Below, one piece after another: positions 1,226-57,276 of a DNA stretch of 64,000 nucleotides. Both the position numbers and the translations under genes were made by a program. Below the pieces are notes generated by a model, which ran no database searches, had not been told where the DNA came from, and was given only the letters and a program-made list of their open reading frames with translations. Source of the DNA: Sphyrna mokarran (Eukaryota); NCBI GenBank assembly GCA_024679065.1, contig JAGIQG010000007.1:29326001-29390000 (forward strand). The letters are read 5' to 3'. Every line of letters begins with the position of its first letter. Positions within the stretch are counted from its first letter, which is position 1.

Positions 1226-2004
1226 CATGTTATAGCTCCTGGTAATGAGATCAAAAGACAATATGACTGAGAAGTTTAAAACAATGAAGGGGATTAATCT
1301 AGAATGACTCTTCCCTCTTTCAAGAAATGAAGAATAATGTTTTATTATCTTCAGTTTGCATTTAACCAGTTAAACATCACTTAGGAAGAATGTCTACCTC
1401 CCCCAAATCCCATAGTTGCACAATCAACAGACACTCACAAAAAGGGAGATAGATGTTTACATTGGAAGGAACAGTATTAAGGAATCTATGGAGAGATGGA
1501 ATTTATGATACAAAAGATTGAATTGCATTGCTAATAAAATGGTGAAGCAGATTCAGGAAGTATTTTCCTGTTTCCTTACACTTCTAAAGTAGAATTAGAA
1601 GGTTAAGAGCTATAAAACCCTGTATTACAGTTCACTTAAATGATTGCAATGCATGCATTTTAGCAAGTTGTATGACAAAATACAGGTAATGTCTCAGATT
1701 CAGCTACCTGAAAACTGATGATGTCCAAAAACTGGACATTTTTACATTGCCATGCAGGAATTTTAATTATTATTAGACAAGTTAAATAACTTACTGGCTT
1801 GTTTAACCAGGTCCTGCATTGTCACAGTAACTAGCCAACTACTCATGGACTTCATGATTTATCAATGTAAAGATCAACCCTTGATCCCACCAGACCCAGT
1901 TCAGCCTGAACCACCCCATCCAAAAACTGGCAAGGCCCAAAATCCAACGTGGACTTGTTCCTAACACTGTATGAGTAGCTAGGAATTCACAATCTGTATT
2001 TGAA

Positions 2005-2310
2005 AAGAAACAATCAGCTTTCATTTATATAGCATTTTGCATATTCTCAGAATGAACAAAAGCACTTCACAGGTAATGAGCACACCACTGGAGCTCCCTA
2101 TTCTCCTTCAAATAGTGCCAATGGATACATTCACTTGAACAGGCATATATGGCCTTGGTTTGAAATCTTATCACAGATAGTACGTTGGAAAATGCAACAT
2201 TGTTTCAGTCCTGCAATGATTTGCCTAGATTAAGAGTTCAAGTCCTGAAGCACAGTTTAAGCATACAATTTTCTGACTCAAATGAGAGTCCTACCATGGA
2301 GGTCAGTGAT
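2005..2310 (-). mobile_element. Old tRNA-derived SINE (SacSINE1/DeuSINE-like), decayed
   Basis: Antisense L2-like tail (tttcatttatatagc) and antisense head remnants (ttctgactca...gagagt). Similar relics at ~14850-15040 and ~62600-62800. Confidence 0.45.
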
Positions 2311-2875
2311 ACTCTTCATTCATTATAGGTTCAGGTCCTGTATCAGATCCGACAAAAAAAATTACCTTGTGTATTCTCTTTTGAATATGAATCTGGTGGA
2401 ACTATTGTGTATTTGGGATTTTCTGTTCAAAATCCCAGTTATTCTAATTTTTTTCTCTCTATAATTTAGCTCCCCATCTCCTAGCAGAATCTGTCTCATC
2501 TTGTATTTGTTTATCCAGGATAACATATTTTGAAATAAAAGATTCACAATGGCAAATCCCAGGCTCAGTCCACCATCTCTGTAGCGCAATGTTGAAGTAT
2601 TGATGATAGTGAATTATGATTGCAGTCCTTGGTAAAGACTTTGGGAATAATTGTACCATACAAGGTACTATAGAATGGCCAAACTCATCATTCACGAGAA
2701 AATAATCCTTTGGATGCTGTATACTGACCTGAAAATAATAACTTTAATGTCATCTGCTTCTTAATTCTCAAAAGACACAACTTCAATCATCCTGTCTTGT
2801 GATTCAAAAAGGATTATGAAACGATTTAATTTTGTGTACCCAATTCTGCTGAGAACTGATTTTTTTTGAGTAAGA

Positions 2876-2995: not shown

Positions 2996-4619
2996 TTTTT
3001 GAGTAAGACAGAGGTTGTTTTGCTATACTGCCTGATATTGCTACATTGCAGCATTTCTACAATAAGAATATCCAGAAATTGAAAAACATGATCTAGATAT
3101 TTACAAACCACTCATTCAAGCTTTCAGACACTTACAGACAAACAATTCAATCATTTTACCAACACCATATTTGGATGATAATACACCATATGGACCAGAA
3201 AGACTCCAGGTTTTACTTCTAATTTATGCTCAGTTGATTTATCTCAGCCAGAATTGACATTACAATTATCCTTAACAGTACCTAGCTGGCGATAAATGTT
3301 ACATCAGTTCTCACTCATTAATATCAAATGATTCCTGCTTAAAGATGTAAGCCCATAAAATAGACTTTAGATAGAGGCTAGATTAAAAATGACTAATGTC
3401 CCCATTCTCGGTAAAATGGATGCTGTGGACATTCTGTGGAATTGACAAATGAGTTGGGGTCTACACTTAAATATGAAGAATGGCTCCTTGAGGGATATCC
3501 AACCAGCTGCACACAACAATGAGTCAAAGTATTCAAGAAAGCATGAAGAAAATGAAGAAACAATGGAAAATATCTTGATTACAGAAGAATGCTTTTTGAA
3601 TAATAAGTGTCAAACCGTTCAAAGATTCAACACATAACTATGGGGTCAAGACCACCATAAAAGACCTACCATAATGCACAATTCCAGGATCACATTTTTA
3701 TTCCCATTCGGCCAGAGATGTTAGAAAGAGATCCTGTAAATGGAGGGAAAAAATTATGAACATAAACATAAGTATAATCTAAAGCCAGAATAAAAAGAGA
3801 TTCTAAGAAAACAAAAAGCCTTATGAAAACATTACCATGCAATGCTAGAAAAAAAACATTGTTTAGAGTGAATTTATTCTGATTCAAAAATCAAACATTA
3901 AGCATTTGAGGCTAACTATAACAAAATTATAGACAAAGGTTATGTGGTTTTTACACTTTGTTTAACAGGATAGAATTTAAGATCAGCTACTGCTTAGTTT
4001 GCAGTTATATAGTTTAGTCTCTACACAATTACAAGATCGATTTATAATTGTTAGGAGTTTAGTAGTACTTGAACCTTTTCTATAGTAATTTTTTTACTCT
4101 AACAGCTTTACAACCTTGCTTTCTTTTAGCGTTTACTGGTTTTAAATGTTAAAGGTAAATTAAGTGATATTAAAATCTACTTGATTCATTTACCTTTGCA
4201 ACTGAAGACCTTTTAAGGGTTACACATCCACTGCCTCTGACGAATGCCACATTAGTCAAGTCTGTTTGCCTCTAAAAAGCTTTAATTGCTTCCAGCGGAG
4301 GATTCATTTAGGTAATTCTCATAAAAATTCCAAAGTGCACTAGTGAAAAAATGCTTAGACAAGATGAAATGCTGATCACATTCTTCAAATATTCACTGCT
4401 CAGTAGTGTATTTTCAAAGGCCAACAATATGGACTTTTTTGTTTTTTTTTAAAACATCATTCAGGTATATTTCTGTATAGACCTCAAGACAAACTGATTG
4501 TTTTTTAAAAGAAAATTTTAAAAAGACAAAAATATGTTTTCCCTGTTTAAAATATTTTTGTGGATTTATTTGGCGTTAAGAAAATATATCGAAGTTACTG
4601 ATATGTCACACACAGCAAG

Positions 4620-5211
4620 TTTGTTGTTTTTCTCAAAACTTTATTTGTATCAAGCAAGAATAGTCAATGTCTTTGATCTCAACACTACAGAATATCTGGA
4701 GACTTCAGTTACAAAAGAATACAACTTTACTTGGCATTTGGAGTTTACTATTGTTTAAGTAAAAGTTTACAAGGGATAATGCTCTAACACAAACTAAACT
4801 TAAAAGTTCAAACCAAAACTTTTTAACAAAAACTAAAAGCAAAACAAAAAAAACATTGATGTGAACTGAATTTGTGTTTACATTTTAAGTGATCTACATT
4901 ATCAAACCTAGTTTGGTAATAGATTTTTAAATGGCTAGTTAAAACTTAAAAAACGTGTTAATCCTGTTTACTTGTTTCCAACAAAGCACACAAGATCAAA
5001 GTCTTTCTTCCCACCCATCTACTTCCAGAGATCAAATAATCTCTTCATCCAAGGATTAAGGACTTCATACAAGAATTCAGAACTGGTTAAACAGATCTGT
5101 TGTAGTTAAGAAAAAAAAACTTTTATATAAAATAACCAATTACTTTTAACAGCGTACATCACTGCAGAAACAGTTAATTGATGATTGTATTTCACAGAAT
5201 AGATGATAGGA
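4620..5211 (-). other. KHDRBS3: KHDRBS3 3'UTR (AU-rich, many UAAA/UUAA motifs)
   Basis: Repeat-free sequence between the stop codon and AATAAA; the end is inferred about 20 nt after the poly(A) signal. Confidence 0.7.
4640..4645 (-). terminator. Polyadenylation signal AATAAA with GU-rich downstream element
   Basis: tttatt on + at 4640-4645, followed on the minus strand by CTTGCTGTGTGTGAC (~4605-4619). A second AATAAA lies at 4565-4570. Confidence 0.7.
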
Positions 5212-5312
5212 TCAGTATCGTGGTGCATAGGGGTGCTCCCTGTATGCTCCTTTTGGTGCTCTTGCTGGAGGAGCTTTCATCCGTGAGTTGGAGTTCGTCC
5301 ACTCTTCTTGAC
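5212..5312 (-). CDS. KHDRBS3: KHDRBS3-like (SLM2/T-STAR) terminal coding exon: (G)QEEWTNSNSRMKAPPARAPKGAYREHPYAPRY*
   Basis: Manual reverse-complement translation. Acceptor ...ccacaatag|GTCAAG with AG at 5313-5314 and an upstream CTAAT branch-like motif; stop TGA at 5212-5214. Matches the Sam68/SLM C-terminus (GQEEW...KAP..R..KG.YREHPY..RY); WTNS favours KHDRBS3 over KHDRBS1/2. Confidence 0.88.
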
Positions 5313-17497: not shown

Positions 17498-17556
17498 CAT
17501 ACGATTCATATGTCTCCTGACTGGTTCCATGACCATAATCATAGTAATCAGATGCG
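17498..17556 (-). CDS. KHDRBS3: KHDRBS3-like penultimate exon (59 nt): (S)ASDYYDYGHGTSQETYESY(G)
   Basis: Acceptor ctctcttccacag| and donor |gtgagt. Phases 2 and 1 join in frame with the flanking exons. YYDYGHG is the Sam68/SLM tyrosine-rich motif. Confidence 0.9.
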
Positions 17557-57193: not shown

Positions 57194-57276
57194 CTCTGGC
57201 CTTGATTGCTGTAGTTGTTATCATACGAGTCATAACCTTGATCTTCATAACTTGTTCCGTAGCCATCACCATATGC
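57194..57276 (-). CDS. KHDRBS3: KHDRBS3-like tyrosine-rich exon (83 nt): [27 protein letters not shown](S)
   Basis: Acceptor ctttcctttgaaacttcag| and donor AG|gtaact. Phases 0 and 2 join in frame to 17556. Resembles the SLM2 [22 protein letters not shown] segment as recalled. Upstream exons lie beyond the window. Confidence 0.88.

Follow-up and report, generated by a model that had tools for sequence, protein, structure and literature searches.

Does the last coding exon of a shark KHDRBS3 gene contain an internal 5′ splice site by which SLM2 would route its own message to NMD? We addressed this question in a 64,000-nt stretch of the Sphyrna mokarran assembly (contig JAGIQG010000007.1, C1326:29326001-29390000), hereafter the window, and in the 2.77 Gb genome to which it belongs. 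The circuit itself is already known, and no new mechanism is revealed here. In mouse Slm2, exon 9 contains an internal 5′ splice site whose splicing partners are the non-coding exons 10 and 11 (Ehrmann 2016, PMC5199341); its use depends on SLM2 and peaks where SLM2 is abundant, with human and chicken described as alike. The resulting alternative end 2 is stabilised by cycloheximide, while the effect of UPF1 on SLM2 itself is inconsistent; Sam68 has the same loop, which is UPF1-dependent and accompanied by a drop in protein level (PMC5199341). SLM1 (KHDRBS2) is repressed by SLM2 via splicing-coupled NMD (Traunmuller 2014, via PMC5199341 and PMC11077083), and SLM2 also controls Sam68 (Farini 2024, PMC11077083). 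Among the SLM2 CLIP peaks listed for mouse Khdrbs3, 5 of 12 fall in the 3′UTR (PMC10066595 supplement). The initial annotation of this locus had cited the feedback on mouse Khdrbs2 and Khdrbs3 and had left out Sam68/KHDRBS1, which has the same loop.

Judging from protein identities, the gene in the window is KHDRBS3 of a cartilaginous fish. KH exon 3 of the shark gene is identical to human KHDRBS3 (PDB chains) at 39/39 positions and scores lower on KHDRBS1, exon 4 has 100% identity to a protein named KHDRBS3 (Mustelu...) that ranked above those of other cartilaginous fishes, and the last coding exon is identical at 33/33 positions to the KHDRBS3 (Mustelu...) protein P0001, all of which bears out the gene and the taxon initially named. 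The window does not reach exons 1-6, which are situated upstream of it, and the terminal coding exon begins at 5312 on the minus strand (Table 1).

Table 1. Positions within the window of the KHDRBS3 exons, the candidate splice sites and the candidate poly(A) signals
Feature	Position	Strand	Basis
KHDRBS3 coding exon 7 (83 nt, tyrosine-rich)	57194..57276	-	Sam68-YY match; AG/GT ends read; tblastn of P0001
KHDRBS3 coding exon 8 (59 nt)	17498..17556	-	Sam68-YY match; ends read; phases link exon 7 with exon 9; tblastn
Exon 9a (169 nt: the final coding segment and the 68 nt of UTR behind it; form predicted when the internal donor is used)	5144..5312	-	coding part 33/33 against P0001; 5144 end inferred
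TGA stop codon	5212..5214	-	sequence read
Candidate internal 5′ splice site AAA/GTAATT (GT 5143-5142)	5138..5146	-	weak; same GTAAT core in 4 other KHDRBS 3′ ends
UAAA/UUAA-rich stretch (1410 nt), 3′UTR in the stable form and predicted intron in the decay form	3734..5143	-	motif density
Two proximal AATAAA hexamers (4645-4640 and 4570-4565), candidate poly(A) signals for the stable end	4565..4645	-	sequence pattern
Distal AATAAA with a U-rich run behind it; candidate poly(A) signal lying 145 nt ahead of predicted exon 10	3873..3878	-	sequence pattern
Predicted non-coding exon 10 (64 nt): AG 3735-3734 with 15/16 pyrimidines; donor ATG/GTAGGT, GT 3669-3668	3670..3733	-	ranked first among 8 exon-like pairs in 3.9 kb
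Candidate acceptor for a last non-coding exon 11, whose first base would be 1993	1993..2010	-	pattern only

The C-terminus encoded by the shark gene (window 5215-5310, minus strand) is three residues longer than in the lungfish, bichir, marsupial and turtle proteins, reading NSNSRMK...YAPRY where those have NSRHK or NNRHK...YARY or YSRY. In one shark KHDRBS3 isoform, about 9 additional residues stand between exons 1 and 2 (P0001 residues 31-39), which suggests a micro-exon within the Qua1 dimerisation domain. Several shark RefSeq proteins have 2-4 accessions each, for which alternative UTRs are possible; 5′ and 3′ alternatives being indistinguishable there, these were not counted.

Past the stop codon, the minus strand reads AAA/GTAATT (the slash in donor sequences marks the exon-intron boundary), with 68 nt between stop and junction. 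Direct reading upheld the initial annotation on the TGA, the GT at 5143-5142 and the 68-nt gap, with TGTGAAATA and GTACGCTGTTAAAA/GTAATT present exactly as it had written them, and likewise on its claim that a donor-like sequence lies in the last coding exon more than 50-55 nt past the stop. Donor strength was judged by pairing in register with the U1 5′ end of the same genome and acceptor strength by pyrimidine counts. The candidate lacks G at both -1 and +5 and forms 6.5 of 11 U1 pairs, the joint best of the 12 GT sites that lie within 150 nt of the stop; a GT at 5136, 7 nt downstream, pairs equally well and has T at +3. Because 234 of 3000 dinucleotide-shuffled versions of the window UTR also place a GTAAT core 55-100 nt past the stop, its occurrence in one gene proves little. 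With a profile built from the four other KHDRBS donors, GT 5143 came only 3rd among the 93 GT sites between 3700 and 5211, and 20th among 3357 across the scanned window. Judged alone, it makes a weak candidate for a splice donor.

The window donor rises above chance because the same core stands at 63-82 nt in four other KHDRBS 3′ ends. Three KHDRBS loci were found in the shark genome: the window gene, one on C816 and one on C1104. The C816 gene matched KHDRBS1 or 1-like proteins in 5 of its 7 top protein matches and 2-like proteins in the other 2, so that its KHDRBS1 label rests on protein names; TMEM39 is on the same contig, yet 45 Mb distant, which is weak synteny. By elimination the C1104 gene is taken as KHDRBS2, an assignment that also leans on sequence features and gene size which we take to be typical of that gene. 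CAA/GTAATAGT lies 82 nt past the stop in KHDRBS1 and 78 nt past it in KHDRBS2, and in both cases it pairs better with U1 (7.5 pairs) than any other GT site within 150 nt of the stop, among 12 GT sites in KHDRBS1 and 10 in KHDRBS2. AAGTAAT occurs a single time within the first 3 kb past the stop in each of the three shark paralogs and is their longest common word over the first 120 nt (57 of 3000 shuffles); a 14-mer around it is common to KHDRBS1 and KHDRBS2, not to the window gene (1 of 3000 shuffles). BLAST of the window UTR against either paralog detected no shared block.

The remaining two 3′ ends came from a DNA-pattern scan of metagenome contigs, which yielded two spliced mRNAs (L043, L044), both KHDRBS1-type; for the one tested, the KH domain scored 196.7 bits on KHDRBS1 versus 160.1 on KHDRBS3. 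Both look like bony-fish khdrbs1. They carry AAC/GTAATTT at 63 nt and AAA/GTAATTT at 68 nt past the stop, and both are unspliced across the donor-like site. In another metagenome scan, which used the last-exon alignment, 0 of 105 pattern matches were confirmed as other vertebrate loci. Overall, the first GTAAT core stood 63-82 nt past the stop in 5/5 KHDRBS 3′ ends (68, 78 and 82 nt in shark KHDRBS3, KHDRBS2 and KHDRBS1; 63 and 68 nt in the two mRNA contigs), which are related sequences and not independent trials. The shuffle rates for this placement in the four 3′ ends outside the window were 149, 222, 324 and 150 per 3000. The letters kept in all five are those of the donor core, from -2 to +5, with one base excepted.

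The initial annotation had overlooked a candidate acceptor exon 1.4 kb from the donor, inside the window. Our scan for acceptor-donor pairs returned 8 pairs in 3.9 kb of the window and 6 pairs in 8 kb for each paralog. The top-ranked window pair is predicted exon 10, and its top-ranked counterparts are a 53-nt unit 2113 nt past the C1104 stop and a 60-nt unit 3204 nt past the C816 stop. Density of UAAA/UUAA falls at or just before the predicted small exon in all three paralogs, and the predicted distance from stop to second junction is similarly composed in each: 68+64=132 nt for KHDRBS3, 78+53=131 nt for C1104 and 82+60=142 nt for C816. No convincing alignment was found between predicted exon 10 of the window and either paralog exon. 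In 306.5 kb of control sequence (intronic, antisense and downstream), a strict rule gave 3 matches and a loose one 11, for a probability of at least one chance exon-like unit per 4 kb of 0.04 (strict) or 0.13 (loose) per gene; because the thresholds were fixed after the candidates had been seen and the strict setting recovers no real KHDRBS1 exon, these background figures are only descriptive. Predicted exon 10 contains an AATAAA (window 3697-3702, minus strand) and could therefore serve as a terminal exon. Further acceptor-like sites follow it, including one at 3433, and none is singled out for exon 11. Beyond predicted exon 10, in the downstream direction, GTCAGT directly follows the CAG in which a T-rich run ends (window 2723-2740, minus strand), an acceptor-donor overlap of the recursive-splice-site type.

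Annotated isoforms of other vertebrates have a comparable spacing. For the 7 khdrbs rows considered in the S3 Table of PMC7310861, where distance runs from the stop to the farthest 3′UTR intron, human KHDRBS3 ENST00000521461 has two 3′UTR introns and 117 nt, and zebrafish khdrbs1a ENSDART00000125633 (Ensembl; 11 exons) has two 3′UTR introns and 121 nt. Subtracting from the latter the 63-68 nt of the mRNA contigs leaves 53-58 nt, which matches the predicted exon sizes. Four other khdrbs3 rows of that table do not fit (human 50, 82 and 4237 nt; mouse 544 nt), and the zebrafish khdrbs1b row gives 206 nt; the same table has no row for zebrafish khdrbs3 among those considered, and khdrbs goes unmentioned in the main text of that paper. 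The accessible text of PMC3595034, PMC6909182, PMC5062968 and PMC11062102 likewise held nothing on the mammalian junction, and the primers given in PMC5199341 do not fix the position of the mammalian donor.

Between the donor and predicted exon 10, UAAA/UUAA motifs reach 4.1 per 100 nt, compared with 1.4-1.7 in KHDRBS3 introns; the corresponding donor-to-exon densities in the paralogs are 3.4 and 2.9 per 100 nt. We counted 45 non-overlapping (58 overlapping) motifs from the donor to the predicted exon-10 acceptor, and 17-19 non-overlapping (21-23 overlapping) up to the first AATAAA sites, so that the 18-20 motifs counted in the initial annotation hold only if the UTR stops at those sites. Against dinucleotide shuffles the window excess is borderline (58 versus 48.6 +/- 5.9; reached in 71 of 1000), whereas that of the paralogs is clear (7 and 1 of 1000). 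Between stop and donor, KHDRBS3 has 3 motifs in 68 nt and none in the coding part, hence 3 in the 169 nt of exon 9a, and the paralogs have 0 in 78 nt and 1 in 82 nt; shark KHDRBS3 is not depleted of UAAA/UUAA between stop and donor, whereas depletion is reported for amniotes.

The downstream regions of shark KHDRBS1 and KHDRBS2 have two collinear non-coding blocks in common. One, of about 98 nt and 77% identity, surrounds an AATAAA (C816, 1833-1929 nt past the stop; C1104, 619-715 nt) and also aligns with the mRNA contigs (L043:1840-1945, L044:2068-2175); the other, of about 210 nt and 72%, lies between the AATAAA block and the predicted exon 10 counterpart (C816, 2470-2670 nt; C1104, 1299-1505 nt) and may be part of the switch. 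The poly(A) block of shark KHDRBS1/2 and the mRNA contigs was sought in the window gene and not found there.

Taken with its surroundings, GT 5143 is probably the shark equivalent of the internal 5′ splice site by which SLM2 would route its own message to NMD. The initial annotation had proposed this reading for shark SLM2, and it has since gained from the position of the core, from a small predicted exon in three paralogs and from a spacing like that of human and zebrafish, its match to the mammalian donor being indirect. Because the layout is common to KHDRBS3 and its two sister genes, sharks likely have a self-limiting switch of this kind, and because shark KH exon 3 is identical to that of human, the same RNA-binding preference is expected. 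We take the regulatory steps from mouse and human work and the anatomy from the shark sequence. When SLM is low, the weak donor would be ignored and cleavage would occur at an AATAAA (4645, 4570 or 3878), giving a stable mRNA. When SLM is high, SLM dimers would bind the UAAA/UUAA cluster, hexamers included, dampening cleavage and helping U1 snRNP to stay on the weak donor, in the manner of Sam68 at mTor intron 5. Position 5144 would then be joined to 3733, and the message spliced on to the last exon (acceptor-like sites at 3433 and 1993). The two junctions would stand 68 and 132 nt past the normal stop, beyond the rule of about 50 nt, and a message with full-length coding capacity would be destroyed.

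The mTor precedent for this step is close in some respects only. At mTor intron 5, Sam68 brings U1 snRNP to a sub-optimal donor via U1A (Subramania 2019, PMC6486544), and UUUUAU/UAAA sites beside the donor overlap a poly(A) signal (PMC6486544). The shark site resembles it in its sub-optimal donor, in the motifs downstream (TTTTAT and TAAA lie at most 25 nt from GT 5143) and in a competing poly(A) signal. It differs in that splicing of mTor intron 5 is productive, whereas that of shark KHDRBS3 would be destructive; moreover, the mTor effect was shown for Sam68, not SLM2, and its motif spacing is unlike that in the shark.

Among other accounts of the same sequence, the donor could be spliced at a low, constitutive level or serve an alternative 3′ end, without SLM feedback or efficient decay, which we consider unlikely. 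The AATAAA at 3702 inside exon 10 could end the message there, the UAAA/UUAA excess of the window gene is borderline, exon 11 has several acceptor-like candidates, and many transcripts with 3′UTR introns are described as escaping decay (PMC13223760). Even with exon 10 as the last exon, however, the junction would lie 68 nt past the stop; the RNA-binding exon is identical to that of human, and all three mammalian paralogs are regulated in this manner (PMC5199341, PMC11077083). It is slightly harder to credit that the donor is a silent remnant or has some other role, such as a protein- or microRNA-binding element, its position conserved while it stays unspliced and the exon-like units being due to chance or dead. 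Such a reading would suit a weak donor without G at -1 or +5, a window UTR without a block shared with the paralogs, exon-scan thresholds set post hoc and two mRNA contigs that are unspliced at the site, but the letters conserved in the five 3′ ends are those of the donor core itself. A top-ranked exon-like unit of 53-64 nt where the UAAA/UUAA zone ends in each of three paralogs, and a spacing near that of the annotated human and zebrafish isoforms, speak against it as well.

That the switch is real and works through another donor strikes us as very improbable. Two sites come into question: CAA/GTAAAC at 4971, 240 nt past the stop, where ACAAGTAA is the longest word common to the three shark paralogs within 300 nt, and GT 5136, which equals GT 5143 on U1 pairing. 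Both human junctions lie at most 117 nt past the stop, a span into which 240 nt cannot fit, and on that comparison the 4971 donor was ranked low; GT 5136 has T at +3, and the GTAAT core and the 63-82-nt position fit 5143 alone.

With GT 5143 as the preferred donor, shark KHDRBS3 can be set beside the known members of the family. It is like SLM2 alternative end 2 of mouse, human and chicken in being the orthologous gene, with a donor-like site in the last coding exon, a UAAA/UUAA-rich region downstream, a small non-coding exon (predicted in the shark) and a second junction at 132 versus 117 nt; it is unlike it in that this is a cartilaginous fish, in which the switch is predicted from genome sequence, and in that UAAA/UUAA is not depleted between stop and donor. 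Zebrafish khdrbs1a ENSDART00000125633, an annotation only, is also alike, with two 3′UTR junctions and 121 nt there versus 132 nt predicted in shark KHDRBS3. Sam68 alternative end 2 joins a cryptic donor in terminal exon 9 to non-coding exons, and shark KHDRBS1 resembles it with a candidate donor at 82 nt and a predicted 60-nt exon; unlike the window gene, the shark KHDRBS1 UTR has the 14-mer and the two longer blocks in common with KHDRBS2. For the SLM1/SLM2 system, published primers name exon 9b and exon 10 (PMC5199341), to which the candidate donor at 78 nt and the predicted 53-nt exon of shark KHDRBS2 would correspond. Repression of SLM1 by SLM2 is cross-regulation, whereas the proposal for shark KHDRBS3 is self-regulation.

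Shark KHDRBS3 thus appears likely to be a further member of the known KHDRBS switch. The initial annotation had suggested that the circuit may date to the jawed-vertebrate ancestor, which is too young and is not new: the Discussion of Ehrmann 2016 (PMC5199341) considers feedback likely in the ancestral gene whose triplication gave rise to Sam68, SLM1 and SLM2, placing the loop before that triplication. Three khdrbs genes are reported in every vertebrate examined, lamprey included (PMC5758493). Since that paper and the 11-exon Ensembl isoform of khdrbs1a both precede us, the evolutionary point is not ours; what is new here is predicted exon 10 and the putative three-part layout common to three shark paralogs. 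A literature search, with subscription papers and the supplements of PMC11077083 and PMC13223760 outside its scope, found no paper on the KHDRBS loop in sharks. If true, our reading would give cartilaginous-fish sequence support to a loop older than the Sam68/SLM1/SLM2 split, so far inferred from mammals and chicken. The loop is a dose control of neurexin-splicing regulators; its conserved feature would be the weak donor core, set at a constant distance past the stop, and exact predicted junctions are now named for three shark paralogs, such as window 5144 to 3733 for KHDRBS3.

A broader proposal is possible, if rather doubtful. All three vertebrate KHDRBS genes might keep one switch from before the genome duplications, made up of a weak AA/GTAAT donor without G at -1/+5 about 65-80 nt past the stop, a UAAA/UUAA sensor overlapping poly(A) signals, and a decay exon of 53-64 nt. 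With a KHDRBS1 that looks more SLM-like than mammalian Sam68, sharks might then retain the ancestral symmetric state in which each paralog senses the summed dose of the three; the hierarchy in the mouse brain, where SLM2 dominates, would have arisen later. Mammalian Sam68 has a long N-terminal arm. In shark KHDRBS1 (C816:45887567-45917445), a coding exon begins near MATEKYLPEL and the KH exon is SLM-like; because the long arm seems absent, this gene may be nearer the ancestral state.

Repetitive sequence was noted at both loci. Downstream of shark KHDRBS1, at a distance of 17 kb, runs a long open reverse-transcriptase-like frame (C816 from 45870290 downward), and in the window a decayed repeat at about 350-1260, by eye a CR1-type LINE, has many further copies at 65-72%.
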